DNA from: Eggerthellaceae bacterium
GTDB lineage: Bacteria; Actinomycetota; Coriobacteriia; Coriobacteriales; Eggerthellaceae
DNA: 64,000 nt
Assembly (NCBI GenBank): GCA_015062605.1
Contig: SUUI01000006.1
Location: 15,205 to 79,204 of the forward strand
Direction: 5' to 3'
Every line of letters begins with the position of its first letter. The first letter of the stretch is position 1. This document shows, in pieces, positions 37,642 through 58,970 of this stretch. A program made the translations under genes and the position numbers. The notes below the pieces were generated by a model. The model was not told the DNA's origin. It worked only from the letters and a program-made list of their open reading frames with translations, and did not search any database.

Positions 37642-38975
37642 CGACGAAACTTACAACAAACGCCGCCAAGGCGCAGGCGACCAAACTCACCGTTTTAGGC
37701 GAGATCAACCACATGGAAGTCGACATCGCCATCGTAGGCGGCGGTGCAGCAGGTCTAGCCGCTGCGAATGCAGCCTATGATGCAGGTATCACCAACGTTG
37801 CCATCTTCGAGCGTGAAACCGCCACGGGCGGCATCCTCAAGCAGTGCATCCACAACGGCTTCGGCCTGCACCGCTTCAAGGAAGAGCTCTCCGGTCCCGA
37901 GTACGCAGCCCGCGAGCATGAAGCCGCCGTTGAACGTGGCATCCAAATCAACTACCAGGCATTCGTCTTAAGCATCGAAGAGGGTCCTCTGCTTCGTGTC
38001 ATCAGCCCAACGCTCGGCATGACGCACGTGCACGCAGGTGCGATCATCCTCGCGATGGGTTCCCGTGAACGCACGCGCGGCATGTTGCAGATCCCAGGCA
38101 CGCGCCCCGCAGGCATCTATACCGCAGGCACCGCCCAGCATATGATCAACCTCGAGGGAATCATCCCCGGTCGCGAGGTCGTCATGTTGGGCTCAGGCGA
38201 CATCGGATTGATCGTCGCACGTCGTCTCGCCTATGAAGGTGCCAACGTGAAAATGGTTTTGAACCGTTCACATTTCTCTGGCGGCCTTCGCAGAAACATC
38301 GTGCAGTGCCTCGATGATTACGGCATCCCTTTGCGTCTTCTGCATACCATCACGAACGTCTATGGCAAAAACCGCGTAGAGGCAGCCGGCGTATCCCAAG
38401 TCGATAAGGCGACCAAGAAGGCGATTCCTGGCACCGAGGAGATCATCCCATGCGACACGGTGCTCTTAAGTGTCGGCCTCATTCCCGAAAACGAACTCGC
38501 CCGTGCCGCAGGCATCGTCATGGACCGTGGCTCAAAGGGCGCGCTTGTCGATCAGACCTATCAGACCTCGATCCCCGGCATCTTCTCCGCAGGTAACGTC
38601 CTTCATATTCACGATTTGGTGGACTTCGTGAGCGAGGAAGGCGAAGGTGCAGGTCGCGCAGCCGCCGAATACGTGAAAAACGGGGGCGCTGAGCGCGCCG
38701 AGCTCGTGGAAGTGGTCCCTGGCAGTGGCGTGAGCTACGTTGTTCCGCAACGCGTCACACCTGCCGCACAGGGCAAGGTGCTCATGCGCTTCCGCGTACG
38801 CAACATCTACAAGAAGCCAACAGTGCATGTCCTCGCCGATGGCGTGGAAGTGAAGAAATTCAAGCGCCAGATTCTGATTCCAGCTGAGATGGCCGAGATT
38901 AAGGTCGATGCCGAGCTGATTGCAGGCCATAAGACAATCGAAGTCACCGTGGAAGCAGGTGAGCCCAATGAGTGA
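37638..38975 (+). CDS. NAD(P)/FAD-dependent pyridine nucleotide-disulfide oxidoreductase family protein
   Basis: ORF 37596..38975. The likely start MTTKLTT is at 37638, giving an ATGA overlap with the upstream stop. There are two Rossmann motifs (DIAIVGGGAAGLAAA and VVMLGSGDIGLIVA). Confidence 0.75.
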   Translation: MTTKLTTNAAKAQATKLTVLGEINHMEVDIAIVGGGAAGLAAANAAYDAGITNVAIFERETATGGILKQCIHNGFGLHRFKEELSGPEYAAREHEAAVERGIQINYQAFVLSIEEGPLLRVISPTLGMTHVHAGAIILAMGSRERTRGMLQIPGTRPAGIYTAGTAQHMINLEGIIPGREVVMLGSGDIGLIVARRLAYEGANVKMVLNRSHFSGGLRRNIVQCLDDYGIPLRLLHTITNVYGKNRVEAAGVSQVDKATKKAIPGTEEIIPCDTVLLSVGLIPENELARAAGIVMDRGSKGALVDQTYQTSIPGIFSAGNVLHIHDLVDFVSEEGEGAGRAAAEYVKNGGAERAELVEVVPGSGVSYVVPQRVTPAAQGKVLMRFRVRNIYKKPTVHVLADGVEVKKFKRQILIPAEMAEIKVDAELIAGHKTIEVTVEAGEPNE

Positions 38976-39333
38976 GAAAACATTTAAGCACTTCATTTGC
39001 GTGAGCTGCCCTGTGGGCTGCGAGCTTGAGGTCACGATGGAAGATGGCGTGGCAACACAAGTCACGGGCTATACCTGCAAGCGCGGAATAGAGTACGGCA
39101 TCGACGAGGCCACCGACCCTAAACGCGTCGTTACGTCGCTCGTGAACGTTAAAGGTGAGCAGATGCCCTGTTCGGTACGCACGAACCAGGCGATCCCTAA
39201 ACGCCTCATCCCTGACTGCGTGGAAGCACTTCGAGGCATCGAGCTTAAGCCTCCTGTAAAGATAGGAGATGTGGTGCTCAAGGACGTTTGCGGTACAGGC
39301 GCGAACGTCATCGCGACGAAGAACTTCGACTAA
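38968..39333 (+). CDS. DUF1667 domain protein (third member of the GlpA-like trio)
   Basis: The start MSEKTFKHFICVSCPVGCELEV is at 38968 and overlaps the upstream stop. This small Cys-containing protein is typically found after the two flavoprotein genes. Confidence 0.75.
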   Translation: MSEKTFKHFICVSCPVGCELEVTMEDGVATQVTGYTCKRGIEYGIDEATDPKRVVTSLVNVKGEQMPCSVRTNQAIPKRLIPDCVEALRGIELKPPVKIGDVVLKDVCGTGANVIATKNFD

Positions 39334-39336
39334 ACA

Positions 39337-39359
39337 GATGGGCGGCATTGCCGCCCATC
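39337..39359. terminator. bidirectional intrinsic terminator between convergent operons
   Basis: A perfect 10-bp GC-rich stem, gatgggcggc-att-gccgcccatc, followed by tttcattt on the plus strand. It sits in the 32-nt gap between the stops at 39333 (+) and 39366 (-). Confidence 0.75.
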
Positions 39360-39365
39360 TTTCAT

Positions 39366-40085
39366 TTAATTTCGTGGTTCATCAGGTGCTAAATCGTATT
39401 TATGCTTGATGCGCTCAAGTTTTTTGCGCCATGGTGCATAGAGAACGAGTAAGAAGATGACCGTCGAGATGCCATTCGCCAAATCCAGAGGCAGACCAGC
39501 ACCGTATGCAAGCAATGCGGACTGCCACGTGATGGGATGAACATAGCCGATGATGTACCAGGAGTTCAAAAGGAAACCATACTCGAGAATCGGCGCGAGT
39601 AGACCATATCCATACAGAATCGGTTTGCGCTCGAAGGCGCCATGGTCTGCGAGCACGCCTGCAAGATAACCCATCAACCCGAACCCGTACATCTGCCATG
39701 GGGTCCACGGGCCCTGACCTAAGAAGAAGTTGGACAGAAGCATCGCAAGCGCCCCGACCATGAATCCAGAACGCCTACCGAAAATGATACCCGCCATGAT
39801 GGTGATGGCACCGACCGGCTGCACGTTCGGGATGACTGCGAAGACGATGCGCCCCGCAACGGCAAGCGCCGCGAGCACGACCGTGGGCATGATCTGCCGA
39901 AGCTGAGGACGCGATGCTTCAAAGCTCGCGAAGAACACGAGCACACTCAATAAAACCACGACCATCGTGAGCAACGCGGACTGATCCACCTGCATGAACG
40001 CAGCAGAGAGCAAGCTCATCGGAACGATGATGAGCGCTGGTATCTCCAGTTTCTGCCAGATATTTGCCATCGTGCCCTTCGTCAT
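39366..40085 (-). CDS. putative ECF transporter substrate-capture (S) component, specificity unknown (not CbiM-like)
   Basis: A 239-aa, very hydrophobic protein with about 6-7 TM segments. It starts 1 nt after the ECF ATPase stop. The assignment rests on context and topology only. Confidence 0.6.
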   Translation of the reverse strand: MTKGTMANIWQKLEIPALIIVPMSLLSAAFMQVDQSALLTMVVVLLSVLVFFASFEASRPQLRQIMPTVVLAALAVAGRIVFAVIPNVQPVGAITIMAGIIFGRRSGFMVGALAMLLSNFFLGQGPWTPWQMYGFGLMGYLAGVLADHGAFERKPILYGYGLLAPILEYGFLLNSWYIIGYVHPITWQSALLAYGAGLPLDLANGISTVIFLLVLYAPWRKKLERIKHKYDLAPDEPRN

Positions 40086-40086
40086 G

Positions 40087-41574
40087 TCAGATGCCAGACT
40101 CCATTTCTGGACGAGTCCATGTCACAAAGAACCGATCGATCACGGGACGATAGAACAGATTCTCTGCGAAGAACAGAGAAGTCGGCTCCGTACTCACGAT
40201 CTGCCCGTCGAAGATCATCGATGTGGTATCCGCGACACGCGATGCGAATGCCAGGTCGTGCGTGACAAGGAGAACCGTCGTTCCATGTGCTGCAGCACGG
40301 CAAATCGCATCGGCAACGATGTACTTGGAACGGACATCTAAACCTTTGGTAGGCTCATCGACCATAAGCAACGCTGGTTTCGTGAGCATGATCTTCGCGA
40401 ATGCCAAGAGCTGTTGCTGACCGCCTGACAAGTCGTAAGGGTGCTGCCCAAGCACATGGTCGATATGGAGGTTCTTCGCCAGAACCTGAATGTCCTCATC
40501 GGTATAGCCGCAACCTTTTTGCCATTCGGCAAGCTCTTCAGCTGCCGTATCGCACACGAACAGCGACTTGGGGTCTTGTGGCAAAAGCGCCTGATTATCT
40601 TTAAGCAGATTCTTCAAAGAGCCGCGGTCTATCTTCATGATGCCTGCCATCGTGGAAAGAAGCGTTGATTTGCCGCTTCCGTTGCCACCAACAAGCGTAT
40701 GAACCGAGCCCTTCTTCAATGTGAAATCCAACCCGCGCAAAACATAGGGCAATTCGCGCTTGTAACGCACATACACGTCTTTGAATGTGACGGCAACATC
40801 CTCTCCCGAAAACGCGGGGGCGCATACGCCCTCCGCTCGAAAATCCACCGAAGATGCGCGTTCGTGAACCTCACGTCGATACGCTTCCACATCCCTATCT
40901 TGAACTTTTCCGTCCTTCATGACAGCGAAGACTGTAGCGTAATCGACCACGGTCTCCGGCTCATGCGTGACCATGAGAATAGTCAAGCCCAACTCGCGGT
41001 TGATACGGAAGAGCGCATGCAGGAAGTTCTTGGAAGCCACAGGGTCGAGTTGCCCTGTGGGCTCATCTAAAAGCAGGATGCGCGGGCGGAGCGCGAGAAT
41101 ACTCGCAAGGGTCAGAAGCTGCTTCTGACCACCCGAGAGCTCGTTCGTGGCATTATCCAGCCATGGCTCGATGCCAAAGAAGTGCGCTACCTCAGCCACA
41201 CGACGGTGCATCTCGTCTTGCGGGATCGCAAGGTTCTCTAACCCGAATGCCATCTCATGCCACACAGTGTCGCATACGATCTGATTATCAGGGCTTTGCG
41301 ACACATACCCGATAGTCTGTGCCGATTCGGAAGCAGAGAGCTCTTCGATCGGTCTTCCGAACACGCGGATGGACCCCTCGCGCACACCCGTAGGAGCAAG
41401 CTCGGGCTTCATATTGCGAAGAAGCGTGGTCTTGCCGCAGCCCGTGGCGCCCACGAGCAACGTGAGCGAACCTTCCTTCACGGTCCAATCTACGGGGCCT
41501 AGGATGAGCCTATCGCCATATGCGAACGTGAATCCAGAAACCTCGATGGCGGGGACATTCCTTACAGGCTCCAT
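40087..41574 (-). CDS. ECF transporter ATPase, fused EcfA-EcfA' (two ABC domains)
   Basis: A 495-aa ORF with two Walker A motifs (GATGCGKTT, GGNGSGKST), two signatures (LSGGQKQ, LSGGQQQ) and two Walker B motifs (LLLDEPT, LMVDEPT). Confidence 0.9.
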   Translation of the reverse strand: MEPVRNVPAIEVSGFTFAYGDRLILGPVDWTVKEGSLTLLVGATGCGKTTLLRNMKPELAPTGVREGSIRVFGRPIEELSASESAQTIGYVSQSPDNQIVCDTVWHEMAFGLENLAIPQDEMHRRVAEVAHFFGIEPWLDNATNELSGGQKQLLTLASILALRPRILLLDEPTGQLDPVASKNFLHALFRINRELGLTILMVTHEPETVVDYATVFAVMKDGKVQDRDVEAYRREVHERASSVDFRAEGVCAPAFSGEDVAVTFKDVYVRYKRELPYVLRGLDFTLKKGSVHTLVGGNGSGKSTLLSTMAGIMKIDRGSLKNLLKDNQALLPQDPKSLFVCDTAAEELAEWQKGCGYTDEDIQVLAKNLHIDHVLGQHPYDLSGGQQQLLAFAKIMLTKPALLMVDEPTKGLDVRSKYIVADAICRAAAHGTTVLLVTHDLAFASRVADTTSMIFDGQIVSTEPTSLFFAENLFYRPVIDRFFVTWTRPEMESGI

Positions 41575-42488
41575 ACGATGCGCTCCTTAATCTCCAAAAT
41601 GAAGGGAATAATCAAGAACAGAAGGTAAGGCAGGTAACCCCACCACACAATAAGCTCGCTGAGCTTTGGATAGTAGGTGAACTGCGTGCATGCCGCAATG
41701 GCGCAAACCGTGCTTATCACGATGAGAACGCCCATGATAGCCGCCATAACGCCATCGCGAGCGCGAAAGTCGCTTCTTTGATAGGTGGTGCGCTTCGGGG
41801 CAGCACCCCAACCGCGAGCCCTCATGGCCTCGGAAGTGTCAAGTGAGTCTTCCATTCCCCACCCCATGAGCACCGTGAGATCGCGCAAATACGTGCGGAC
41901 AGAATCCGCCCGCTTCGCGAAGAAACCCTTACTTGCGATAGCATCAGAAGTACCTTGCGAACCGAAGCCTACCTGATTATCAAGGTTGGCAGAGGTGCAG
42001 AATTCCTGCGTTGAACGTATCGACTTGGAACGTCGCATGAATTGCGGGACCAAGCGCAGAATCATCGTCACCATGAGTCCTATCGTGGGCATAACCCTAC
42101 CCGTAAGCTGCATCATCTTATCGCTCGTGAGTATATGCGAGAGGTTAGAGAACCACTGCATGATAGATACGAGCATGATTCCCATGCATAGGCCGTATAC
42201 AAGGCTTTCCAAATAGAAAGCGCTGTATCCGAACATGAACAGGACCGTCGATCCGCTTTGCGAGAATATCGGGTTCAGAAGCGTGATGATCAAAAGCAAT
42301 GGCAGCTGCCATGTAAGCGTTTTGAGCGCGGGACGCCATCCACGCAAGAAGATGTTATAGGCGATCGCCACGATGAAATTCATGGCCAGAAAGACCGGCT
42401 GGAACGCGGCCATTGTGAATACAAGCGCCGCAACCAGATAGATTGCGGCGATCGCAGGATGATATGTGTCAAAGGCTGTTCTGGTCAT
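41562..42488 (-). CDS. ECF transporter transmembrane (T) component, CbiQ/EcfT family
   Basis: A 308-aa polytopic ORF with the characteristic coupling-helix Ala-Arg-Gly motif (SEAMRARGWG). It overlaps the ATPase start by 13 nt. Confidence 0.85.
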   Translation of the reverse strand: MTRTAFDTYHPAIAAIYLVAALVFTMAAFQPVFLAMNFIVAIAYNIFLRGWRPALKTLTWQLPLLLIITLLNPIFSQSGSTVLFMFGYSAFYLESLVYGLCMGIMLVSIMQWFSNLSHILTSDKMMQLTGRVMPTIGLMVTMILRLVPQFMRRSKSIRSTQEFCTSANLDNQVGFGSQGTSDAIASKGFFAKRADSVRTYLRDLTVLMGWGMEDSLDTSEAMRARGWGAAPKRTTYQRSDFRARDGVMAAIMGVLIVISTVCAIAACTQFTYYPKLSELIVWWGYLPYLLFLIIPFILEIKERIVWSL

Positions 42489-42510
42489 CTAGGGCAAGAC
42501 ATGCCTTCCT

Positions 42511-43128
42511 TTACATGTCATCGTATTTCGTGACATAGTACCAACGAACCCTATCGCCATCGCTGAGCACATACGATCCGCAAGACATCATCGGTGTGTA
42601 ATCATTGACTGAATACATCCACCCGCTCGTTTTGCCGTAATCGTATTCCGAAAGACCGTTGATGGAGCGTACATATTCGCTGCTGCCACCGAAAGGCAGT
42701 CCCGTCGCCACTAAGGCATCGAAGACCGTTGCTCCCTCGTCAAGCTCGACCGTCATGTCCGCGAAGTATCCGCGATCGGCATTGGTCGCATCAACGTAAA
42801 TGTAAATCGAGATTGTTGCAGCTTCAGGCTCGGGTTCAGGCTCTGGCACGGGCTCCGGTTCGGAGCTCGATTCGCCAGATGGCGAAGATGCGGACGAGGA
42901 GCTCGACTCTCCCGACGATGGCTTCGCGGCCTCGTCGGAAGCAGCCTTCCCTCCCTCGCTTTCTGTTGCAGATTCGCCGGATTTCTTTTCAACTTGCTCA
43001 GTCTGTGCGGTTGGTTTGTCCTTGGTTGTCTTGAACAGATCACAACCGCACATACATGTGGAGCACAGGAGCACCAATAGACATGCGATAAATGTCCGCG
43101 TCAGTCTTTTCGGTGCTCCTGTTATCAT
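42511..43128 (-). CDS. DUF4430 (transcobalamin/intrinsic-factor C-terminal-domain-like) lipoprotein
   Basis: A 205-aa ORF with an AAGGAG RBS and a lipobox (STCMCGC|D). A Ser/Glu/Pro-rich linker is followed by ISIYIYVDATNADRGYFADMTVELDEGATVFDALVATGLPFGGSSEYVRSINGLSEYDYGKTSGWMYSVNDYTPMMSCGSYVLSDGDRVRWYY, the DUF4430 pattern as I recall it. Confidence 0.75.
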   Translation of the reverse strand: MITGAPKRLTRTFIACLLVLLCSTCMCGCDLFKTTKDKPTAQTEQVEKKSGESATESEGGKAASDEAAKPSSGESSSSSASSPSGESSSEPEPVPEPEPEPEAATISIYIYVDATNADRGYFADMTVELDEGATVFDALVATGLPFGGSSEYVRSINGLSEYDYGKTSGWMYSVNDYTPMMSCGSYVLSDGDRVRWYYVTKYDDM

Positions 43129-43169
43129 AAATATGCTCCTTTACACTTCTTGTTTAGGCGAATTATACC

Positions 43170-46100
43170 TTATGCGGTTTTTTCGCCAAGCTGGCCAAGT
43201 GAGAGCCACAAATCATTGGTAGCACGATACCAGCCAGGAATCTTGTCTGACGAAGAGCCAGTATTATTCCAAACTGTGATGTCAAGAACCGTACCATTAT
43301 TCAGCATAGCCTCAACTTCTGCCTTAGGCAAAGTGATTTCGAAGTGCCACATCGTGACACCTTCGTTCGTACCAGCTGAGGTGCCCTCAATAACTTGAGT
43401 TCCTGCAGGCAGATATGAATCCGCGACATAGTTCTCGCCATCAGGAATGAAATCGTGAGACTTGGCAAGGGCAAGGCGCGAATACTTGCCTACAGAAGAA
43501 GTCGAACCATCTTCTGTAAAGATAATCGTGGCGGTATCGCCCTCAACCTTCAAGAAGCGGCTATCGGCCACCATGTGGTTGAACATTGCGCCTGGACCAG
43601 ACTTAAGCTCTGGAAGCGAATACGTTCCATCTTCGAGCACGACGGGCTCCTTGATGGTGAACTCGGCTGTCACAATGCCAGTGTAGCCCGCAGACTCCAC
43701 GCCGGTAATCGTGTACACGACCTTTCCGACAGACGTGCCATCAGAGGTCGATGCAACCGACCCATTGCTGACCGTGTAATCCTGATCGGCAACGAGGGTC
43801 TTGTCACCAATTGCGACCGTGATGGCCGGCTGATGCGGCTGGCCATCATAGAGCACGCTCTCGGGCTCAAGCGTCACCGTAGCCGTGCTAAGGTTGATAA
43901 GCTGTGGCTGGTCACCCTCAATCGCAGCCTTGGTGTGCATGACGTAGAGCTGCTGGACGGACTCGATCTCGCCGAGGCCGGCGATCTGGCAGCTGACGTT
44001 CGCGGGAGCGAAGTTGCCCTCAGCCGTGAACTGGCTGTACCAGGACTCCTCGTCCTCGGGGTCGGCCATGTCATTGTTGGCATGGTCACCTGCGACGACC
44101 ATCAGCGGACGAAGGATGACCTTCGTATAGCCAGCGGCCTTCACCTTGGCGATGACCGCAGAGCACTCGGTGCTTGCGGGCTCGCCCTCGACGGTGCCGA
44201 TGAAGACGTTATCGTAATGGAGCATGTTCATCATGGTCTGCATCTGCTCATAAGTGATGCTCGCATTATGAGCGGTGCCATGGCCCATGAACACGATGGC
44301 GGTGCCACTGGCAGCGGCATCGTTTACGCTATCGAAGCCGGCAGCTTTGCTTGCAGTGCCAGCCGCCGCCATGGCGACGGACTCCTTGTCGCCGTTGACG
44401 ACGGAAGCATCGGCACCGACCTCGCCGAGCAGCGGCTCGGCGACCTTGACGGACTCGAACTTAGACTCGTAGGGCGCGAGTGCCGCGACGAGCTCGTCGT
44501 ACTCGGCGCCATGCATCAGGTGCGTGGGCTGAACAACGAGATTCTTCACACCGTTGGCGACCGCGCGGTCGAGGGCCTGCTGCATGTTGTCGATCTTGAC
44601 GCCGTCACGCGCGTAGATGTGGTTGATGATGATCTGAGCGGTGAACGCGCGGCGCACGGACCAATCCGGGTACGCGGCCTGGATTGCCTTCTCGACGCCA
44701 CCGATGTCCGCAGCACGGCTATTGTTGAACGACGTGCCGAAGCTCACGACCAGAATCTCGTTCTCGCCGATGCCGTCCTGGTTCAAGGGATTATCGGCAG
44801 AAGCATCACCCGTGTCGCGACCGAAGTAGTCGTACTCCTCCACGAGGAGCTTCTCCTCGTCGCTCAGGGCATCCCAAGCGGCCTTGGCGGCCTCGCAGTC
44901 GGCCCAGGTCGTGTCGGTGAAGTACTGGACCTGGATCTTGGCGATCAGGTCGTCGACGCTATCGCCGGAGACCGGCTCGGTCCAGCTGGCGAGGTAAAGC
45001 GTGCCAGCAGCCTCGTTGAGGGTGATCTCGCGCGGATACCACTCCTCGTTCTTCACGGACCAGAACGACATGACGAACGGCTCGCCGTTGGCGAGGTTGA
45101 CGACGGACGTCGGATCGCCGTAGGTGGCGACCCACTTCACCGGGATGGTGAAGGACCGGTCGTCGGCGATGGCGATGGTCTCGGTCGCCGCGGCGGCCTC
45201 ATCGGGCGTGCCGACGAATGCCTTCGAGTACGACGCGGATCCCATGGTCATGACCAGGTCGGCCTTGTAGTTGTTGGAGTTCGGGCCGCCGACCATCTCG
45301 AGCGTCGCGGAGGAGACGCTCATCATGAGGCCGGTCTCCTTGCTCACCTCGAGGACCTTGGAAGCCTCGAAGTCGCCCACCACGAGCGTCTTAGCGTCGA
45401 GATCGAGTGCGAACTGGCGCGGATAGAAGGAGCGCTCGATTGCATTCTGGCCCTGCAGATACTTCTGATAGTAGGTATCGGAGATCGACACGACGGGAAC
45501 GTCCTTGCCCAGCTCATCGGCGGCGATGTTTGTCTGGAACTCCCATTTTCCATCGGAGTTCTGCACGCCCTTGATGAGCTTGTCGGAGCCGGTATCAGCG
45601 GCAATGCCGGAGGCGATGTCCTCCTTAGCGGCGACTGCCTGCTCGTAAGTGCCCTTGTACAGCCAATGATAGCTCGAACCGGACAGCGTGAAGGTCAGCG
45701 TCGCGGAGCCGTCAGCGTTAGCGACAGCGGAAGCGGTCGCAGCCTTGAACATGCCAGTATTGTTGGTGATGACAAGCTCGATCGGCTCAGCCGGAGTCAG
45801 CTTATCTTCAGATGGAATCGCCAAGTAATACTGGTCTGCCGTGGTCGCGGAGGGGTCCTTCACCTTATTCGGAACAACCGGCCACGCATAACCGCAGTAG
45901 CTCTTCGGAAGGGTAATCGAGAAGGTCTCGCTATCGAAATCAAAAGCGAAGTAAGAGTCGTCCTTCCATGTCGACTGAACACTGATATCAGCATTCAGGA
46001 AGAAGCCTTTGTAAATCGTCTTGTTCTTGGGAACGTAGTTGATAACGACATTATCGCCTTCGATGGCGATCGTGGTGCCCTCTTGCGGACCGAACATGCC

Positions 46101-49100
46101 GAAATCGCCACCTGCAGCATTAATGAATTTGACGTTATCGCCGTCATAGGGGAACTCGGTGGCAACGCCTGCGCCAACCTTCCACAGCTGGTTCGGACCG
46201 TCGTTTAAGGTCCAGACACCCACGTTGGCGCCAGCCTGCGGCGCAGAGCCGGCAGCATCAAGCACGACCGCAGGGTTCGCTACGGACTGGATCATGAAGA
46301 AACCAGGGGTTTTCTCGCTCGGGACGAGCACCCATTGCTGGTTCAGAGCTTCATGGTATTGCCACGTGGAGACATTGCCGCCAGCCTGGGGCTCCTCGCC
46401 CTCTGCATCGAGCACCAAGTCGGGATTGGCGAAGTTACGCAGGACGTAGTAGCCGCTATCCTGCAGCTCGATCGTGAACATTTGGTTCGCTCCGCCATTG
46501 CTCGTCCAGATGGAGACATTGGCACCGCTCACAGGCTGGGCGCCGGCGACGTCAAGCACAAAATCATCGCTGAACGCACTCACCAAGTGATTCGGGGTCG
46601 TAGAACCCTTGGGCACAGGAGCCGGATAAATCGTGAACTCGCCAAGTTCCACAGAACCGGAGCAGGTGATACCTTCGATAGTCACCATGTAGGTGCCGTG
46701 CCCAGAAGGAGCCTCGGAGGACTCGCCGAACTTGAGAGCGTAATCGGTGCCCGCAGAAAGTTCCTTACCGTTCAGTGTCACGGTAACATCAGGCGAAAGC
46801 GGACCTCCAGTGACGTTCTTCGCCATGCCGGTAGCCTTCACATCGGCGTAAGCAAGATTATCAGCGGAAACGATCTTCCAAGCTTGGTTCGGACCATCGT
46901 TTGCAGTCCAAACGCCCACGTTCGCACCAATCTCGGGCGCAGAGCCTGCGGCATCCAGCACAACCTCGGGGTTCGCCACGGATTGAATCATGAAGTAACC
47001 GGGGTTCTTCTCACTCGGAACGAACACCCATTCTTGGTTCAGCGCCGCATGATAGGCCCACGTGGAGATATTGCCGCCAGCCTGGGGCACCTCGCCCTCG
47101 GCATCCAACACGAGATCTGTGTTCGCGACGTTGCGAAGCACATAGTTACCGTTATCGGAAGCCTCGACGGTGAACAACTGGTTAGAGCCGCCGTTGGAAG
47201 TCCAAATAGATACGTTTGCGCCACTTACGGGCTCAGCTCCCGCGACATCGAGGATGAAATTGTCATCGAAAGCCGACACGATGCGGTAGGCCTTACCGGC
47301 CTCGATGCCCTCAGGGGCATTGGAAAGATCGAAGGTGCCGATCTTCTTCTCGCCGAAGTACTTGCCGCCATCAACCGCCTTCGCAGTCACGACATACTTG
47401 CCAGCTACGGTCGGGACATCAGTGGTCACATTCGTCCCGTCATCATAGTACAGCTTGTAATCGGTACCCTCAACAAGAGCGTCAGACCCCATGGTGAGGG
47501 TGACCTCAGGAGCAACAGCCTTGCCGTTGATGATGTTTTTGGTCATACCAGTTGCCTCAGCGGTGGCGCAACGGAGATCATTCTCCTCAACGAACCACCA
47601 CAGTTGGTTCGGCTGACCGTTGCCGGTCCACAGACCGACATTGGCGCCAGCTTGGGGCTCGGAACCCGCAGCATCAAGATACAGCGCATCGGAGATGATG
47701 TTGACCATATAGCCCATATCATCACCTGCGCCAGCACCGAGGAGGGTAATGTTCCATTCCTGGTTGGTTCCGCCATTAGCAGTCCAGGTGGAAACGTTCG
47801 AGCCTGCTTGGGGCACAGCGCCCGCAGCATCGAGCACGAGCTCGGGATTGGCAACGTTACGGATGACATAGCCGCCACGATCGCCGATATCGAAGGTGAA
47901 GAGCTGATTGTCGCCACCGTTATTCGTCCAAATGGAGACGTTGGAACCAGCCTCGGGCATCGCCGCAGCGACATCGAGCACAAATGCGTCATCGAAGGCG
48001 GAGACGATATGGTACTTCGTGCCGTCGATCTTCACGGGCAATGCCTTCGGGTAGACATCGGTCATGTCGTAGAGAGATGTCTCGCGTTCCACGAAGCGGT
48101 TATATGCGACTAGAGCATAGAAACCCTGCTGCGTAGCAGCCAGGTTGTAGTTCGTATCAACCCAACCGAAACCGCCACCAGCGCACGCATAGGTGCACAG
48201 CGCATCAAGCACGGACTTACCGTTCTTGATGAAGCGGGAATCGGTATCCGGATCGATGCCGAGCTCGGTCAAGGCAACGATGACCTGGGAAGCGGACATG
48301 GAGTTCTCAGAACCCCAGCTCGCAAAACCACCGGTATCGAGCTGCATATCGGAAAGCTTGGCGACTGCCTTGTCGACAGCGGCTTTCACATTAGCATCCG
48401 TATCAACGTACTTGGCCAACGCCTGGATAGCCATGGCCGTCAGGTCGGGATCGGCATTGGTTCCCATGTAATCCCAACCGCCATCGGCGAGTTGAGCGCT
48501 CAAGATGTTCTCGATAAGCTTCTCGCGCGTAGTCTGGGTTGCACCAGCGTCAGCTTCGGGAATCACATAATCATGGGAGTCAAACGCCAGAAGCGCATAG
48601 ATGGCGGCATTCACGCCCTGCTTGTCGATGGCGTCATAGTCAGCCAAACCCTTGGTCAAATCATAACCGCCGAGATCGCTCGCATCGTAGTGCGCGGCGG
48701 TCAGTGCGAGGATGGTGCGAGAGTAATCCGTGCTAGCAGCGCTCGGACCGAGCTTCCCGTCATTGTCTTGCAGGGTTTTCGCGATGTTCGCAAAATACGG
48801 GCCAAAGCCCATATGGGACCAGCCGCGAGCCATGCCCATGACGAACCAATCGGTACCGGAACCCATGCCGTCATCAAGGATATCCCACACGAGATCACGC
48901 GTACGCATGTAGATGTCGATGACATCATCCGGCATGACGCGCTCATATTCGAAGGTGATGACATAGTACAAAGTGGAATTCCACGATGTGTCATATGGGC
49001 TTTGAATCTGAATGCAATCGAACTCACCATCAGCATTGAAGTCCGTAGCAACAGTTGCGCTCGACTTGCCAGCATAAACATCTGGATAGTTCTGCGCACC

Positions 49101-50240
49101 ATCAAGATAGGTTTCCCCATCCGCTTTGTAGTTATAGGCTTGGACATCATCGGAGAAATAGAGATCAACAGATTCCGTGCCCTGGGGGATTTCGACCGTA
49201 TATGCGCCAACAGTCGTCGCGGGACCATAAGTCGACCCCGTATAGCCATCAGGTGTGAAGGAGAGAACCGTGCATGCCTGGCCATCCACTACAACAGTGA
49301 AGGAGGCAGTGTAGTTGATCTCGATGGCATAGAGCATGGTCGAAGACCAGTTCTCGTCATAGGGCGTCTGAACCCAGATGTAAGCAGGGAGCTCACCTTT
49401 GCTGTCAGCATTGAAGGATGCAGTAACCTCGCCGATCTGGCCGTTGTTACCGTATCCGTTAATCTTGTCGGCAGCACCGGTGTCGATATACGAGGCCCAC
49501 TCGTCATAACCGTATGCGATTAGCGGAACACCCTTGAAATCGAGCTCCAGCGCCGAGGTGCCATACGGCACGGTCAGAACATAAAGATCGGAGGTGTTCT
49601 CAACCTGAACCCAATTACCGCTTTCATCCTGAACCCATTGAGAATAGGTGTAGCCATCTTCGATCAGGTCGGAGGAAGTGCCAACCGAAGGAACGAACGG
49701 ACCGTCCCATGCGGGAGCTGCAGGAAGTTGGACGATGAAGCAATGGGCGTTCTCGTAATCTTCTGTGCACAGGATGAAGATGTAAGCGTTGCTGAAGTCA
49801 AGAGAATCCGCCGAGCTGTCAAGCTCGATGTTATCATCTTCCTCAAGGAACTCCGTCAAATTAAACTGTGCATCAAGGCGGATAGGCGCCTCGTAGACGC
49901 TATCCCTTTCGGCGCCGGTCATATCCTCAAGTCCCATGAAATAATACGTGTTAGATCTGGGATTGAAGAGCTGGGCGCCTTCGTCCATCAGGTCCGCGAG
50001 ATCAGTGAAAACGATGACATCGGCAGCTTCATCGAGGGCGATGTAATTGATGTCCATCTCCTCCATGAACGTATACGTACCGATGACATCGCAATCCTCG
50101 ATCGCAACGTCCTTTTTAACTGTGTCTGCCTTGGCTGTCGCCGGAGCGAACGCCATGCAGAGCGCGAAAGCCAGGAACAGCGATGATATGAGCGCTATCC
50201 CCTTCTTCGCGAGTTGAGAGCATCTGAATGGTCTATCCAT
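43170..50240 (-). CDS. giant secreted multidomain protein (2356 aa). Domain order: signal peptide; acidic N-domain; 2 x beta-repeat; alpha/alpha-toroid; 3 x (ricin beta-trefoil + Ig-like); 3 x unknown module; CbiK-like chelatase domain; Ig-like; 4th unknown module
   Basis: ORF 43170..50324. The realistic start is the Met at 50240 (MDRPFRCSQLAKKGIALISSLFLAFALCMAFAPATAKA|DT), preceded by GGAAGGGGG. The annotated upstream 28 codons run through the riboswitch terminator. There is no LPXTG or lipobox. Domain evidence is given in the separate entries. Confidence 0.85.
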   Translation of the reverse strand: MDRPFRCSQLAKKGIALISSLFLAFALCMAFAPATAKADTVKKDVAIEDCDVIGTYTFMEEMDINYIALDEAADVIVFTDLADLMDEGAQLFNPRSNTYYFMGLEDMTGAERDSVYEAPIRLDAQFNLTEFLEEDDNIELDSSADSLDFSNAYIFILCTEDYENAHCFIVQLPAAPAWDGPFVPSVGTSSDLIEDGYTYSQWVQDESGNWVQVENTSDLYVLTVPYGTSALELDFKGVPLIAYGYDEWASYIDTGAADKINGYGNNGQIGEVTASFNADSKGELPAYIWVQTPYDENWSSTMLYAIEINYTASFTVVVDGQACTVLSFTPDGYTGSTYGPATTVGAYTVEIPQGTESVDLYFSDDVQAYNYKADGETYLDGAQNYPDVYAGKSSATVATDFNADGEFDCIQIQSPYDTSWNSTLYYVITFEYERVMPDDVIDIYMRTRDLVWDILDDGMGSGTDWFVMGMARGWSHMGFGPYFANIAKTLQDNDGKLGPSAASTDYSRTILALTAAHYDASDLGGYDLTKGLADYDAIDKQGVNAAIYALLAFDSHDYVIPEADAGATQTTREKLIENILSAQLADGGWDYMGTNADPDLTAMAIQALAKYVDTDANVKAAVDKAVAKLSDMQLDTGGFASWGSENSMSASQVIVALTELGIDPDTDSRFIKNGKSVLDALCTYACAGGGFGWVDTNYNLAATQQGFYALVAYNRFVERETSLYDMTDVYPKALPVKIDGTKYHIVSAFDDAFVLDVAAAMPEAGSNVSIWTNNGGDNQLFTFDIGDRGGYVIRNVANPELVLDAAGAVPQAGSNVSTWTANGGTNQEWNITLLGAGAGDDMGYMVNIISDALYLDAAGSEPQAGANVGLWTGNGQPNQLWWFVEENDLRCATAEATGMTKNIINGKAVAPEVTLTMGSDALVEGTDYKLYYDDGTNVTTDVPTVAGKYVVTAKAVDGGKYFGEKKIGTFDLSNAPEGIEAGKAYRIVSAFDDNFILDVAGAEPVSGANVSIWTSNGGSNQLFTVEASDNGNYVLRNVANTDLVLDAEGEVPQAGGNISTWAYHAALNQEWVFVPSEKNPGYFMIQSVANPEVVLDAAGSAPEIGANVGVWTANDGPNQAWKIVSADNLAYADVKATGMAKNVTGGPLSPDVTVTLNGKELSAGTDYALKFGESSEAPSGHGTYMVTIEGITCSGSVELGEFTIYPAPVPKGSTTPNHLVSAFSDDFVLDVAGAQPVSGANVSIWTSNGGANQMFTIELQDSGYYVLRNFANPDLVLDAEGEEPQAGGNVSTWQYHEALNQQWVLVPSEKTPGFFMIQSVANPAVVLDAAGSAPQAGANVGVWTLNDGPNQLWKVGAGVATEFPYDGDNVKFINAAGGDFGMFGPQEGTTIAIEGDNVVINYVPKNKTIYKGFFLNADISVQSTWKDDSYFAFDFDSETFSITLPKSYCGYAWPVVPNKVKDPSATTADQYYLAIPSEDKLTPAEPIELVITNNTGMFKAATASAVANADGSATLTFTLSGSSYHWLYKGTYEQAVAAKEDIASGIAADTGSDKLIKGVQNSDGKWEFQTNIAADELGKDVPVVSISDTYYQKYLQGQNAIERSFYPRQFALDLDAKTLVVGDFEASKVLEVSKETGLMMSVSSATLEMVGGPNSNNYKADLVMTMGSASYSKAFVGTPDEAAAATETIAIADDRSFTIPVKWVATYGDPTSVVNLANGEPFVMSFWSVKNEEWYPREITLNEAAGTLYLASWTEPVSGDSVDDLIAKIQVQYFTDTTWADCEAAKAAWDALSDEEKLLVEEYDYFGRDTGDASADNPLNQDGIGENEILVVSFGTSFNNSRAADIGGVEKAIQAAYPDWSVRRAFTAQIIINHIYARDGVKIDNMQQALDRAVANGVKNLVVQPTHLMHGAEYDELVAALAPYESKFESVKVAEPLLGEVGADASVVNGDKESVAMAAAGTASKAAGFDSVNDAAASGTAIVFMGHGTAHNASITYEQMQTMMNMLHYDNVFIGTVEGEPASTECSAVIAKVKAAGYTKVILRPLMVVAGDHANNDMADPEDEESWYSQFTAEGNFAPANVSCQIAGLGEIESVQQLYVMHTKAAIEGDQPQLINLSTATVTLEPESVLYDGQPHQPAITVAIGDKTLVADQDYTVSNGSVASTSDGTSVGKVVYTITGVESAGYTGIVTAEFTIKEPVVLEDGTYSLPELKSGPGAMFNHMVADSRFLKVEGDTATIIFTEDGSTSSVGKYSRLALAKSHDFIPDGENYVADSYLPAGTQVIEGTSAGTNEGVTMWHFEITLPKAEVEAMLNNGTVLDITVWNNTGSSSDKIPGWYRATNDLWLSLGQLGEKTA
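43925..44765 (-). other. CbiK-type (class II anaerobic) chelatase-fold domain within the secreted giant protein
   Basis: Sequence ILVVSFGTSFNNSRAADIGGVEKAI...VRRAFTAQIII...NLVVQPTHLMHGAEYDEL...AIVFMGHGTAHNA...KVILRPLMVVAGDHANNDMA. Both His-containing boxes that ligate metal in CbiK (QP.H...G.EY and GHGT.H) are retained. Confidence 0.7.
46175..48020 (-). repeat. three tandem cassettes of ricin-type beta-trefoil lectin (about 140 aa) plus an Ig-like domain, period about 710-720 bp
   Basis: Each trefoil has three Q-x-[WF] subrepeats: NQLFTF/NQEWNI/NQLWWF; NQLFTV/NQEWVF/NQAWKI; NQMFTI/NQQWVL/NQLWKV. Approximate trefoil positions are 47585-48020, 46870-47295 and 46175-46595. Trefoils 2 and 3 are very similar along their full length. 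Confidence 0.8.
48090..48900 (-). other. prenyltransferase/terpene-cyclase-like alpha/alpha-toroid domain (transcobalamin alpha-domain-like) within the giant protein
   Basis: Periodic helical-hairpin repeats carry small or aromatic residues: GTDWFVMGMARGW, TDYSRTILALTAA, VNAAIYALLAF, LADGGWDY...DPDLTAMAIQALA, LDTGGFASWG...SMSASQVIVALTELG, CAGGGFGW...NLAATQQGFYALVAY. Confidence 0.6.
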
Positions 50241-50316
50241 ATGTCCCCCTTCCTCTATACGTGCCACGCTTGCCAGAGCCGAGTTGTGCAAGCACCTTAT
50301 TACAGAAGAAGGGCCG

Positions 50317-50353
50317 CAAAACAAAAAACTGCGCGCACATAGAGTGCACGCAG
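50317..50353 (-). terminator. intrinsic terminator forming the expression platform of the riboswitch leader
   Basis: The minus strand reads CTGCGTGCAC-tcta-GTGCGCGCAG (one mismatch) followed by TTTTTTGTTTTG. It lies about 75 nt upstream of the 50240 start codon. Confidence 0.55.
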
Positions 50354-50424
50354 CCCGTATTCGCTACGTAAAAGCCAGGCTGACGCCCAGGTTGGACACA
50401 CGGTGATTCGCCGCAGTTTCCAGC

Positions 50425-50552
50425 ACGTCTCCTAGTGGGCGATCTGGCTTTCGGCGAGGGTGTGTTTTTATGCTACGACGACCGATTCACAGTGGCGGGA
50501 CCGCGTGGGAATCTCACCCACTTCTCCCATCCTAGAAGGTCTTTCTTCTGTA
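50425..50552 (-). promoter_or_regulatory. cobalamin (B12) riboswitch aptamer, compact form
   Basis: The minus strand reads ...CUAGGAUGGGAGAAGUGGGUGAGAUUCCCACGCGGUCCCGCCACUGUGAAUCGG...CGAAAGCCAGAUCGCCCACUAGG. The conserved core elements are recognisable: GGGA(G/A)A, GGUGnnAnUCC, GCGGuCCCGCCACUGU and a B12-box-like AGCCAGAUCGCC. A P1-like closing pair joins CUAGGAUGGG with CCCACUAGG. Downstream, CCUGGCUUU can alternatively pair with the B12-box AAAGCCAG. Confidence 0.75.
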
Positions 50553-50558
50553 CGCTCC

Positions 50559-50587
50559 ATAGTATCGAAAACACCCTTGAATGAAAA
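50559..50587 (-). promoter_or_regulatory. candidate sigma-70-type promoter for the riboswitch operon
   Basis: The minus strand reads TTTTCA-17 nt-TACTAT, which would place the transcription start just upstream of the aptamer. This is sequence pattern only. Confidence 0.3.
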
Positions 50588-50744
50588 GGGAGAATACGTT
50601 TCAAGTTGGATTTTCTTGTCGCTTTTTGACTGGTTTTCTCGGAATCGAAACCATGTTGTTCGATATCTCTAACTCGGGGTCAAGCGGGTTCGTCCATAGA
50701 GACGATTGCCTTAGCGAAACATCATGGTTTTCCGCATCAAGCAA

Positions 50745-52677: not shown

Positions 52678-52680
52678 GAC

Positions 52681-53811: not shown

Positions 53812-53814
53812 CGC

Positions 53815-55119: not shown

Positions 55120-55297
55120 TGCTTAACGCCTTTCTGTCCTATATGAAACAGATGATAATCATTGTGTATGTATTCCGCAGCTTCCGCCATTGTAATAATT
55201 ATTGATTCCCACAATACAATGGGGGAACGATATCGTATTGCTGAAGAACATTTCCAATTATTCAACCAATATACGCAGAAGACACTCGCTGTTCTTG

Positions 55298-56128: not shown

Positions 56129-56252
56129 ACTCCGTCTGCGTTCGGTGATGAGATCGATTTTAAGTCTGCCTGTTAATTATGAGCGTTAATCAATAAATTG
56201 GCACTATCTTGCCTGATAAATGGTTTTTCTTCCCCGTTTGCTTTTTTCCCGC

Positions 56253-57668: not shown

Positions 57669-57691
57669 TGACCTAATCCAAACACTGTCAA

Positions 57692-58960: not shown

Positions 58961-58970
58961 AAATACTGCC

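Follow-up and report, generated by a model that had tools for sequence, protein, structure and literature searches.

What does the membrane importer of a gut Eggerthellaceae bacterium transport when its operon also encodes two exported proteins, one of them 2356 residues long, and how would those proteins serve it? Within the window, the whole 64,000-nucleotide stretch of DNA that was analysed, five tightly packed minus-strand genes (39366-50240) lie downstream of a leader, with open reading frames called at 43170-50324, 42511-43128, 41562-42488, 40087-41574 and 39366-40085. Recomputed spacings in gene order were 41 nt, 22 nt, a 13-nt overlap and 1 nt, which agrees to the nucleotide with what the original prediction had claimed for five co-directional, packed genes. 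The first frame is TTG-extended; its real start, an ATG at 50240, gives a protein of 2356 aa. A 134-aa open reading frame past the closing hairpin was rejected as a sixth gene, being the antisense shadow of a plus-strand gene. The features are as follows:

50388 to 50552, minus strand: probable AdoCbl-class cobalamin riboswitch aptamer (RF01482 match)
50316 to 50356, minus strand: intrinsic terminator (expression platform), between aptamer and start codon
50127 to 50240, minus strand: start (ATG behind AGGAAGGGGG) and Sec signal peptide, aa 1-38
48942 to 50126, minus strand: N1 (aa 39-175) and repeated beta-rich N2/N3 (aa 176-433), no Pfam match
48036 to 48941, minus strand: alpha/alpha toroid, aa 434-735, transcobalamin alpha-domain-like (weak Pfam, AlphaFold, Foldseek)
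46176 to 48035, minus strand: three ricin-type beta-trefoil lectin domains and two Ig-like spacers, aa 736-1355 (Pfam)
44937 to 46175, minus strand: beta-sandwiches X1 (aa 1356-1482), X2 (1483-1630) and X3 (1631-1768) (hhalign, structure model)
43917 to 44936, minus strand: helical linker (aa 1769-1826) and CbiK-fold class II chelatase domain (aa 1827-2108) (Pfam CbiK)
43173 to 43916, minus strand: Ig-like spacer (aa 2109-2200) and C-terminal beta-rich CT (aa 2201-2356), no Pfam match
42511 to 43128, minus strand: membrane-tethered DUF4430 (SLBB, transcobalamin beta-domain family) protein, 205 aa (PF14478, E 1.5e-17)
41562 to 42488, minus strand: EcfT (T component), dedicated subfamily (19-sequence profile)
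40087 to 41574, minus strand: fused EcfA-EcfA' ATPase (two ABC_tran domains)
39366 to 40085, minus strand: S component, CbrT family (vitamin B12 ECF S-component; PDB 6FNP chain A)
39337 to 39359, minus strand: operon-ending hairpin, GATGGGCGGCAATGCCGCCCATC then TGTTT, beginning 7 nt past the S stop codon (sequence reading)

The original prediction had described a signal-peptide protein of 2356 aa with a toroid, three ricin cassettes and a CbiK-like domain, and Pfam and AlphaFold bear this out. The three N-terminal beta-rich domains, the Ig-like spacers, the helical linker before CbiK, X1, X2, X3 and CT are parts that it did not contain.

The leader, previously described as containing the cobalamin-riboswitch core sequence, matched the AdoCbl model RF01482 over its full length (model positions 1-149 of 149) with the B12 box GCCACUG inside the match, but its 44.5 bits (E 7.7e-7, E-value mode, 751-nt search) fall under the Rfam cut-off of 50 bits for that family, and at Rfam gathering thresholds the leader matched no family. 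The terminator, a strong one, consists of a 13-bp stem (seven GC pairs), a 5-nt loop and then TTTTTTGTTTTG; it was recovered in the minimum-free-energy fold, and the whole leader had a z of -3.45. The leader of L008, the only close orthologue, is 98% identical with few differences, all in loops, and is too similar to show covariation in support of the aptamer. Judged from its leader sequence, the operon is probably under vitamin-B12 riboswitch control.

The last three genes encode a dedicated ECF importer composed of a CbrT-family S component, EcfT and a fused EcfAA'. The S component, at first only a polytopic candidate, is a homologue of Lactobacillus delbrueckii CbrT (6FNP chain A, E 7.5e-12; next S-component E 0.099), matches ECF-ribofla_trS, DUF6580 and ECF_trnsprt in Pfam, and is 37% identical to the S portion of a fusion in L002. 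CbrT, characterised in 2018, transports cobalamin and cobinamide (PMC5997447). The ATPase is fused as proposed, with ECF_ATPase_1/2 as the best NCBIfam models (E 1e-80 and 3e-77), and cbiO models also score. As a single sequence the T component matched nothing in Pfam, and its earlier assignment was confirmed solely through the 19-sequence profile (E 3.3e-15 against EcfT chains 5D3M_D/6FNP); with an invariant R-G coupling motif (MRARGW), it is a divergent EcfT whose family numbers 1968 clusters at E<=1e-10. The rule that ECF importers lack extracytoplasmic binding proteins, on which the original prediction drew, stands as a generalisation, but published exceptions exist.

The two exported proteins are jointly predicted, from sequence and structure models, to be the halves of a transcobalamin-like binder, with the toroid on the giant protein and DUF4430/SLBB on the membrane-tethered one. 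The toroid matched SQHop_cyclase_C/Prenyltrans only below threshold, and its AlphaFold model is an alpha/alpha toroid (pLDDT 87, pTM 0.90). Foldseek placed transcobalamin/intrinsic factor, the suspected relatives, among the top structural matches (E 2e-4 to 2e-3) with the highest query TM-scores (0.56-0.60), and also returned terpene cyclases (E 8e-5), from which it did not separate the toroid. The closest toroid homologues (48-50% identity) carry DUF4430 fused on the same chain, and the N2-N3 and toroid portion is 35% identical to P0004, which opens an orthologous operon. Transcobalamins have DUF4430 as their C-terminal domain (PMC4350170; PMC1796856). The DUF4430 protein has a long Ser/Glu/Pro linker and 38% identity to the same-position DUF4430 gene in L002; the domain had been correctly recognised, but its description as a lipoprotein finds no canonical lipobox, only MCGC, at an N-terminus with one hydrophobic segment. 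A DUF4430 profile search of the PDB did not reach transcobalamin.

The sole hydrophobic segment of the giant protein is aa 10-36, and a scan for surface anchors found no LPXTG and no C-terminal transmembrane segment. Its three beta-trefoils (RicinB_lectin_2 PF14200, E 8e-66; Ricin_B_lectin PF00652, E 8e-35) have three QxW/F motifs each and nine NQx[WF] motifs in total, and, with the Ig-like spacers, account for roughly one quarter of its length. Homologues bear SLH, choline-binding, CW_binding_2 or ChW anchors where the ricin domains stand here, and by this analogy the lectins may tether the giant protein at the wall. Its complete architecture forms a singleton cluster, and the domain order already differs in the 97%-related L008, which indicates rapid shuffling.

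The CbiK domain (Pfam E 5e-68, aa 1829-2108) matched FetB 9B86 (E 2e-35), CbiK 1QGO (E 4e-35) and CbiKP 2XVX (E 1e-27) in the PDB and keeps the metal-site motifs His (MGHG), Glu (VEGEP) and His (AGDHA). Linker and CbiK are common to more than 800 secreted homologues at about 70% identity, and five of the six such genes sampled (L005, L006, L053, L054, L055) lie directly behind RF00174 riboswitches. By hhalign, X2 and X3 match each other at 98.9% and the C-terminal domain of secreted CbiK proteins at 92-94.5%; that C-terminal family has Pfam NEAT matches in 9/12 members (best E 5.6e-8) and hits NEAT PDB chains at E 3e-4. X2 and X3 are distantly related to NEAT domains, which bind haem. The X domains themselves never reached the Pfam NEAT threshold, and the X2-X3 model (pLDDT 91) forms two beta-sandwiches that drew generic Ig-like matches only in Foldseek. 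P0002 carries the X2-X3 module twice behind a 109-bit cobalamin riboswitch, and in L004 an RF00174 riboswitch stands directly ahead of an X2-X3-module protein. CT also occurs in P0136, P0139 and P0054, and matches X2 with an hhalign probability of 65%. Two features are new: the CbiK/NEAT-like module as a widespread secreted, riboswitch-controlled family that is apparently uncharacterised, and its fusion to the toroid protein, found only in this Eggerthellaceae clade.

Many of the 44 related loci that a co-occurrence survey yielded from Coriobacteriia and Clostridia carry canonical cobalamin riboswitches, and dozens of genomes contain the core arrangement. Among the 34 loci with enough upstream sequence, a DUF4430 gene stands immediately before T in 22 and a toroid gene in 18. 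Each of the four core genes has its orthologue in L002, and the N2-N3-toroid part holds first position in orthologous operons, distant lineages included. RF00174 scored at or above gathering directly upstream of 9 of the 13 Clostridia orthologous operons tested (L030, L033, L035, L040, L044, L031, L037, L042, L043), and no riboswitch was found at the operon heads of L002, L036, L046, L047 and L051. No Coriobacteriia locus had a riboswitch match at gathering score; in Adlercreutzia, AdoCbl-II matches slightly under the cut-off lie directly ahead of the toroid gene. The original view that no characterised system had such a composition does not hold, as this operon type was described in 2007 and studied in L. 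sakei in 2019. The core operon is common and was already predicted in 2007; its one unusual element here is the giant fused capture protein.

The operon is likely devoted to scavenging and importing corrinoids (the vitamin B12 family), which would be captured at the surface and handed to ECF-CbrT. This scheme, put forward in the original prediction, is the best-supported reading, given the CbrT-homologous S component and the orthologous operons with canonical cobalamin riboswitches, and because the CbiK and X2-X3 modules are riboswitch-controlled as separate proteins too. Under plentiful AdoCbl, the bound aptamer would let the terminator form and turn the operon off, and scarce corrinoids would allow transcription of all five genes. 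The giant protein would then be secreted and kept at the wall through its lectin domains, where its CbiK-like, NEAT-like and toroid modules may take corrinoids outside the wall. At the membrane, the toroid and the DUF4430 protein with its flexible linker could sandwich the ligand or pass it from one to the other, and CbrT would receive it and topple it across the membrane as EcfAA'T hydrolyses ATP.

Were the ligand haem or another porphyrin instead, the transcobalamin-like pair and the CbiK-like and NEAT-like domains would capture it for ECF import, as proposed for L. sakei Lsa1836-1840. The L. sakei study, the sole one to delete an operon of the same gene order, reports lowered intracellular haem and 57Fe-haemin uptake, which counts against the corrinoid reading. 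So do FetB, a haem-binding protein and the top PDB match of the CbiK domain, and CbiKP, the studied extracytoplasmic CbiK folds, which bind or metallate porphyrins rather than corrinoids, as well as the NEAT matches of domains related to X2/X3, the toroid's likeness to terpene cyclases and the riboswitch score under the Rfam cut-off; the secreted CbiK protein of L006 also adjoins DtxR/feoAB iron genes. We nonetheless consider haem import unlikely, since the operon is headed by a B12-class riboswitch rather than an iron or haem regulator, such riboswitches recur at 9 of the 13 Clostridia orthologues and five of the six secreted CbiK genes, L006 included, and S is specifically closest to CbrT. 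The L. sakei evidence consists of a whole-operon deletion and docking, with no cobalamin competitor in the part available.

It is very doubtful that the exported CbiK acts as an enzyme, (de)metallating extracellular tetrapyrroles or delivering cobalt, for ECF import of the product or Co2+. The metal-site residues are kept, exported FetB can load a porphyrin with Co and Mn in vitro, a cbi biosynthesis cluster that includes a BtuFCD-like ABC system begins with P0060, a signal-peptide protein with two CbiK domains, and the ATPase scores with cbiO models. However, S belongs to the CbrT family and not to the cobalt S-components CbiM/CbiN, the same residues are kept in FetB and CbiKP and do not discriminate binder from enzyme, and most orthologous operons have no CbiK gene, which excludes chelation as the core function. 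A giant protein serving chiefly as a lectin adhesin, co-transcribed through domain shuffling and handing nothing to the ECF importer, is scarcely credible: the lectin content, singleton architecture and altered order in L008 would suit it, but N2-N3-toroid comes first even in distant lineages, each non-lectin module is independently riboswitch-linked, and the wall anchors that replace ricin fit tethering rather than a primary adhesin role.

The proposed corrinoid relay resembles the Bacteroidetes BtuG/BtuH/BtuJ-BtuB systems (PMC8941943; bioRxiv 10.1101/2025.07.01.662609; PMC13616437), whose riboswitch-linked loci encode several surface-exposed corrinoid binders that hand ligand to a membrane transporter. 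Those systems differ in their unrelated folds (beta-propeller, DUF4465 and others), outer-membrane lipoprotein anchoring and TonB-dependent transport, and none of their Pfam families was detected in the operon proteins. A 2026 review cited with these works calls Gram-positive extracellular capture 'entirely uncharacterized'. The staphylococcal Isd/NEAT relay and LhaSTA (PMC7299338) likewise use wall-associated beta-sandwich binders to relay a tetrapyrrole to a membrane importer, LhaSTA being an ECF haem importer supplied by extracellular proteins, but with haem as ligand, iron regulation and sortase anchoring, whereas the domains here fall below the Pfam NEAT threshold and have no LPXTG. P. 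gingivalis FetB (9B86) and D. vulgaris CbiKP (2XVX) share the exported CbiK fold, its metal-site residues and extracytoplasmic tetrapyrrole binding; they are single-domain, Gram-negative and linked to haem and porphyrin, in contrast to the family of the domain described here, which is Gram-positive and has a conserved helical linker, NEAT-like partners and B12-riboswitch control.

The operons described by Burroughs, Balaji, Iyer and Aravind 2007 (PMC1796856) encode secreted bacterial transcobalamin-like SLBB (=DUF4430) proteins fused or paired with alpha/alpha toroids and surface-tethering domains, alongside a second SLBB paralogue as extracellular partner and CbiO-like and CbiQ-like genes. 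That purely computational work predicted scavenging of B12 or its precursors before the S component was recognised, and riboswitches are not mentioned in the part available; the toroid protein here differs in having no DUF4430 of its own and in being fused to CbiK-like, NEAT-like and ricin modules. L. sakei lsa1836-1840, orthologous as far as its architecture indicates, was deleted by Verplaetse et al. 2019 (bioRxiv 10.1101/864751), with reduced haem uptake. It has the same order (toroid-like alpha, DUF4430-like beta, T, fused ATPases, S), toroid and beta domain on separate polypeptides and a surface-capture-then-ECF model, but it is a Firmicute system with haem as claimed substrate and a small alpha protein without CbiK, NEAT-like or lectin domains. 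The L. delbrueckii ECF-CbrT (Santos et al. 2018, PMC5997447; 6FNP), an ATP-driven ECF importer of cobalamin and cobinamide, has a homologous S, and its EcfT is matched by the T component. It is a group II system with a shared general ECF module and no extracytoplasmic partners, whereas the operon described here has a dedicated module (group I, CbrTUV-like) with fused ATPases, an S component with about 55 extra N-terminal residues and two exported proteins co-transcribed with it.

The transcription unit is made up of five genes, because a hairpin follows the gene for the S component and the 134-aa ORF beyond it is an antisense shadow. The intergenic distances of the original prediction (41 nt, 22 nt, a 13-nt overlap and 1 nt) were reproduced by the ORF calls, and the features of the unit, in the order of transcription, are as follows:

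43170-50324 as called, with the ATG at 50240 credible, minus strand: large gene, 2356 aa from the ATG
42511-43128, minus strand: DUF4430 gene, 205 aa, ORF call
41562-42488, minus strand: gene for T (EcfT), 308 aa, ORF call
40087-41574, minus strand: ATPase gene (fused EcfAA'), 495 aa, ORF call
39366-40085, minus strand: gene for S, 239 aa, ORF call
39337-39359, minus strand: hairpin GATGGGCGGCAATGCCGCCCATC, 3' of the S stop codon

A start of the large gene at the TTG at 50324 was rejected, as this codon sits within a terminator and the ATG at 50240 has the Shine-Dalgarno sequence AGGAAGGGGG just upstream. A sixth operon gene, the minus-strand 134-aa ORF at 38944-39348, was also ruled out: it is antisense to the Cys-rich plus-strand ORF at 38920-39333 and lies past the hairpin. 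An identical large protein is deposited in the databases as hypothetical, from a metagenome-assembled Eggerthellaceae bacterium, and forms a singleton cluster.

Convergent with the operon, the plus strand at 36130-39333 encodes a DAO/BFD flavoprotein, a Pyr_redox_2 protein and the small Cys-rich ORF, a trio that resembles anaerobic glycerol-3-phosphate dehydrogenase. Directly upstream of the B12 operon, GC content drops from ~0.57 to 0.41-0.44 past ~54 kb, and the region 50803-64000 has the appearance of a gene cluster, gained by horizontal transfer, that puts phosphonate of the 2-AEP type on a surface glycan and could supply the ligand of the ricin domains. Genes in this region include:

50803-52677: NTP-transferase/Fe-ADH fusion
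52681-53811: phosphonopyruvate-decarboxylase-like TPP enzyme
53815-55119: PEP mutase/cytidylyltransferase fusion
55298-56128: LicD

The last three genes of the operon encode the transporter. S matched S-component families in Pfam and, in the PDB, chain A of 6FNP (E 7.5e-12, residues 59-229), with the runner-up S component, 4HZU_S, at E 0.099. We take this chain to be CbrT because its sequence is unique to 6FNP, the other chains being the shared ECF module; 6FNP is the Lactobacillus delbrueckii vitamin B12 ECF transporter with its CbrT subunit (PMC5997447). The 308-aa T alone found no match in Pfam (including CbiQ) or the PDB; a 19-sequence profile of its orthologues matched EcfT chains at E 3.3e-15, R225 and G226 of the coupling motif were invariant in the 19-sequence alignment, and the orthologue in L002, a metagenomic locus, gave a weak CbiQ match. 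The T subfamily is sizeable: of 1.84 billion representatives, 1968 clusters fell within it at E≤1e-10, and 410 still did so at E≤1e-30. The 495-aa ATPase has two ABC_tran domains, for which the top NCBIfam models were TIGR04520 and TIGR04521 (ECF_ATPase_1/2), both under their equivalog cut-offs, with cbiO matching as well; both domains are encoded in one operon with S and T, at spacings of -13 and 1 nt. By homology, T, AA' and S are a dedicated (group I) ECF importer that is CbrTUV-like, transport itself being predicted. The name CbrTUV reportedly goes back to Rodionov et al. 2009. As an annotation it is in use in PMC6722938.

The original prediction had placed a cobalamin riboswitch in the leader. 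At Rfam gathering thresholds nothing matched in the entire window, including RF00174, RF01482 and RF01689 (clan CL00101), so the claim fails as curated family membership and stands as a significant, full-length match to RF01482, the AdoCbl riboswitch, at 50388-50552 on the minus strand (44.5 bits against a cut-off of 50, E 7.7e-7 in E-value mode for a 751-nt search). This alignment runs end to end, over model positions 1-149 of 149, and includes the leader's B12 box GGUCCCGCCACUGUGA at high posterior probability. Between the aptamer and the large gene, 76 nt 5' of the ATG, lies a terminator at 50356-50316 with a 13-bp stem and a T tract, and the leader folds better than 200 of 200 shuffles (z = -3.45). 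With the leader as query, nhmmer against all loci matched only L008, from a goat-gut Eggerthellaceae MAG; this sole alignable leader orthologue is 98% identical, with its changes in loops, and is too alike for covariation. The case for a putatively functional riboswitch rests on significance, anatomy and comparative context rather than on curated-threshold membership.

The 2356-aa protein has no LPXTG motif and no hydrophobic segment beyond its single signal peptide, and is divided into the following domains:

aa 1-38: signal peptide
aa 39-175: N1
aa 176-433: N2 and N3, repeated
aa 434-735: toroid
aa 736-1355: three ricin trefoils and two Ig-like spacers
aa 1356-1482: X1
aa 1483-1630: X2
aa 1631-1768: X3
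aa 1769-1826: helical linker
aa 1827-2108: CbiK
aa 2109-2200: Ig-like
aa 2201-2356: CT

N2 and N3 (window 48942-49715) are copies of a beta-rich domain of ~125 aa with no Pfam match, which also occurs in the homologous proteins P0003, P0004 and P0044; in orthologous first genes it is always N-terminal to the toroid, with up to four copies in P0003. The ricin domains are three (QxW)3 trefoils (PF14200 219 bits, PF00652 120 bits) with nine NQx[WF] motifs.

The alpha/alpha toroid fold of aa 434-735 was confirmed in a predicted structure of 13 helices (pLDDT 87, pTM 0.90), for which all top Foldseek matches were alpha/alpha toroids. By E-value, terpene cyclases ranked first (8e-5) and transcobalamin 2V3N seventh (2.4e-4), and the highest query TM-scores went to transcobalamin/intrinsic factor (0.56-0.60; 0.59-0.60 for 2V3N) at 11-14% identity. 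The expected structural likeness to these proteins holds at the level of the fold, a specific affinity to transcobalamin being possible. At 48-50% identity, the closest sequences to the toroid come from large surface proteins in which DUF4430 is part of the same polypeptide.

DUF4430, the SLBB domain, was confirmed in the 205-aa protein (PF14478, 64.2 bits against a cut-off of 23.8, E 1.5e-17), where it follows one N-terminal hydrophobic segment and a Ser/Glu/Pro-rich linker of ~75 residues. This protein had been called a lipoprotein, a description that is only plausible, as it has no canonical lipobox, just MCGC. Against the PDB, the DUF4430 profiles A7 and A8 had no transcobalamin match; the low-complexity linker dominated the search with the full-length profile, and a domain-only profile gave weak ubiquitin (beta-grasp) matches. 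The link between DUF4430 and transcobalamin comes from Pfam membership and the literature (PMC1796856, PMC4350170). Toroid and DUF4430 lie on separate proteins in the window, as in many surveyed loci and in Lactobacillus sakei, where the second domain is DUF4430-like (bioRxiv 10.1101/864751). The two may form a complex.

Scanning species-representative genomes with the T alignment yielded 44 loci, which were then scored by custom HMMs. Among them, Coriobacteriia are represented by Eggerthellaceae, Raoultibacter, Adlercreutzia, Collinsella and Olsenella, and Clostridia by Monoglobus, Oscillospiraceae and others. Where 3 kb or more of upstream sequence was available (34 loci), a DUF4430 gene was detected directly 5' of T in at least 22 and a toroid gene in at least 18, both counts being lower bounds, with some HMMs built from single sequences. 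Neither gene was found 5' of T in any of seven Collinsella loci. The Collinsella loci L016-L025 carry T-AA'-S with no toroid or DUF4430 gene detected upstream, and in L019, L021, L022 and L025 the gene for S is not adjacent to the ATPase gene but 5-7 kb 3' of it. L002 has the gene order of the window, with a first gene encoding N2-N3-toroid-DUF4430-SLH-toroid followed by DUF4430, T and a fused A-A-S; its four core components are homologous to those of the window, and a riboswitch search at E≤0.01 found none in it. L013, a contig assigned to 'Bacteroidaceae bacterium', contains a Coriobacteriia-like T-AA'-S locus whose T is 42% identical to that of the window; misbinning probably accounts for this, not an ECF system of Bacteroidetes.

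Riboswitches recur in front of these operons. RF00174 scored at or above its gathering threshold directly 5' of the first operon gene in 9 of the 13 Clostridia loci tested. No riboswitch matched at Rfam gathering thresholds in seven Coriobacteriia loci; in E-value mode, two Adlercreutzia loci had AdoCbl-II matches of 33.1 and 31.1 bits (cut-off 36.5) immediately 5' of the toroid gene. Coriobacteriia seem to carry a divergent aptamer that Rfam cut-offs miss, and the sub-threshold score in the window fits this pattern.

The CbiK domain of the large protein clears its Pfam threshold (229.6 bits against a cut-off of 26.2), and in the PDB it is equally close to the haem-binding FetB (9B86, E 2e-35), to Salmonella enterica CbiK (1QGO, E 4e-35) and to the periplasmic CbiK of Desulfovibrio vulgaris (2XVX). 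It keeps the His-Glu-His site, its MGHG, VEGEP and AGDHA motifs lining up with those structures. At the equivalog level expected of the cytoplasmic biosynthetic enzyme it falls far short (NF047852, 175.7 bits against a cut-off of 400), and the protein that carries it is Sec-exported. In hhalign, X2 and X3 proved to be homologues of one another (98.9%) and relatives of the domain at the C-terminus of secreted CbiK proteins (92-94.5%). Of 12 members of that C-terminal family, nine matched Pfam NEAT, the best at E 5.6e-8, with NEAT structures matching at E ~3e-4; in X1, X2, X3 and CT of the window, Pfam NEAT (PF05031) had no match even at E≤10. A two-domain model of X2-X3 (pLDDT 91) found only generic tandem Ig-like matches in Foldseek (TM ~0.15). 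With moderate confidence, X2 and X3 can be regarded as NEAT-related beta-sandwiches.

Among the T-anchored loci, a CbiK domain within the operon was found only in L008 and the partial locus L009, which suggests that the fusion is specific to this Eggerthellaceae clade. The T of L008 is 97% identical to that of the window, and its large protein has 2437 aa and another domain order. Compared with window 43170-50240, L008 2015-9325 has four ricin domains and X1 after CbiK. The difference indicates that domains were shuffled recently inside this gene.

Outside the operon, the C-terminal 1000 aa as query retrieved more than 822 proteins, typically of 550-1700 aa, with ~70% identity over linker and CbiK. 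These secreted linker-CbiK proteins have signal peptides or lipoprotein-like N-termini, carry SLH, choline-binding repeats or CW_binding_2 as wall anchors, have an annotated NEAT domain in one case, and are named 'sirohydrochlorin cobaltochelatase' where the source names them. RF00174 (38-115 bits) was detected directly 5' of five of the six distinct secreted CbiK genes with DNA (L005, L006, L053, L054 and L055); the sixth, in the Coriobacteriia-like L052, has no RF00174 directly upstream. In L005 (9619-22676), a riboswitch-controlled cluster is headed by P0060, a protein with a signal peptide, two CbiK domains and a NEAT-like C-terminus, and continues with Peripla_BP_2/FecCD/ABC (BtuFCD-like) genes and then cobD, cbiD, cbiG and methylase biosynthesis genes, which places an exported CbiK paralogue in a producer of B12. 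The secreted CbiK gene of L006 adjoins feoAB. In L054 (1190-8209, Lachnospiraceae GCA_017511185.1), riboswitch-controlled P0138, with CbiK and choline-binding repeats, is divergent from a 511-aa unannotated gene and a 235-aa DUF4430 gene; the CbiK and DUF4430 modules are therefore neighbours, unfused, in another lineage. P0002 combines two X2-X3 modules with ChW repeats in an operon behind a 109-bit riboswitch and beside a Peripla_BP_2 gene. A second cobalamin riboswitch in L004 (12248-18377; 60 bits) precedes NifH-like, Oxidored_nitro (NifD-like), Peripla_BP_2, FecCD and ABC genes, a B12-regulated nitrogenase-like pair beside a BtuFCD-type importer.

The analysis establishes the parts list, the export signals, the homologies and the linkage to riboswitches; the substrates of the operon are probably corrinoids or their precursors. 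AdoCbl bound to the leader would favour the terminator and silence the operon. With corrinoids in short supply, the secreted large protein would be kept at the wall by its ricin lectins, where homologues have bona fide wall anchors, and may catch corrinoids via its tetrapyrrole-type modules. The toroid and the linker-tethered DUF4430 domain would then enclose the ligand in the style of transcobalamin, which holds cobalamin between its two domains (PMC1796856), before it is handed to CbrT for ATP-driven import.

The main rival is uptake of haem or porphyrin, for which the deletion phenotype described in the L. sakei study (bioRxiv 10.1101/864751), the action of FetB and CbiKP on porphyrins and the NEAT relationship all speak. 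Against it, B12-riboswitch control recurs and S is homologous to CbrT, and we regard it as improbable. That the exported CbiK domain is enzymatic, as a chelatase, is less likely. A merely adhesive role for the large protein is less likely as well.

Returning to corrinoid uptake, a more tentative proposal is that the linker-CbiK-fold and NEAT-related modules are previously unrecognised Gram-positive surface corrinoid binders. In this 'corrinoid Isd-like relay', possible but rather doubtful at present, successive domains would convey cobamides across the wall until they reach the toroid/DUF4430 pair and finally CbrT. If true, the fusion would be a Rosetta-stone link assigning a function to the CbiK/NEAT-related module. 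The locus physically couples two B12-regulon surface modules (toroid and CbiK/NEAT-like) to a CbrT-type importer, offers a concrete domain set for binding and hand-off experiments, and argues that the many signal-peptide proteins annotated as 'sirohydrochlorin cobaltochelatase' are uptake factors, not biosynthetic enzymes.

The suggestion that no such system was known is wrong for the core. It was described, and its function predicted, in 2007 (Burroughs et al., PMC1796856), as secreted proteins with toroid and SLBB/DUF4430 domains, frequently a pair of them, that occur along with tethering domains and genes for CbiQ and CbiO; CbrT was characterised in 2018 (PMC5997447). An L. sakei operon with the same gene order (Lsa1836-1840) was the subject of experiments in 2019 that concluded haem (Verplaetse et al., bioRxiv 10.1101/864751), the one experimental study of an operon type that is widespread (~2,000 T clusters at E≤1e-10). 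The novel element is the clade-specific fusion that joins the transcobalamin-like operon to the secreted CbiK/NEAT-like family, which is widespread, riboswitch-controlled and apparently unstudied; our literature search found no paper mentioning CbiK and NEAT domains together. Surface capture of cobamides has been characterised in Bacteroidetes only, and the Gram-positive side is, in the words of a 2026 review, 'entirely uncharacterized'; for the competition of Gram-positive gut bacteria for scarce cobamides, this operon type is the obvious candidate system.
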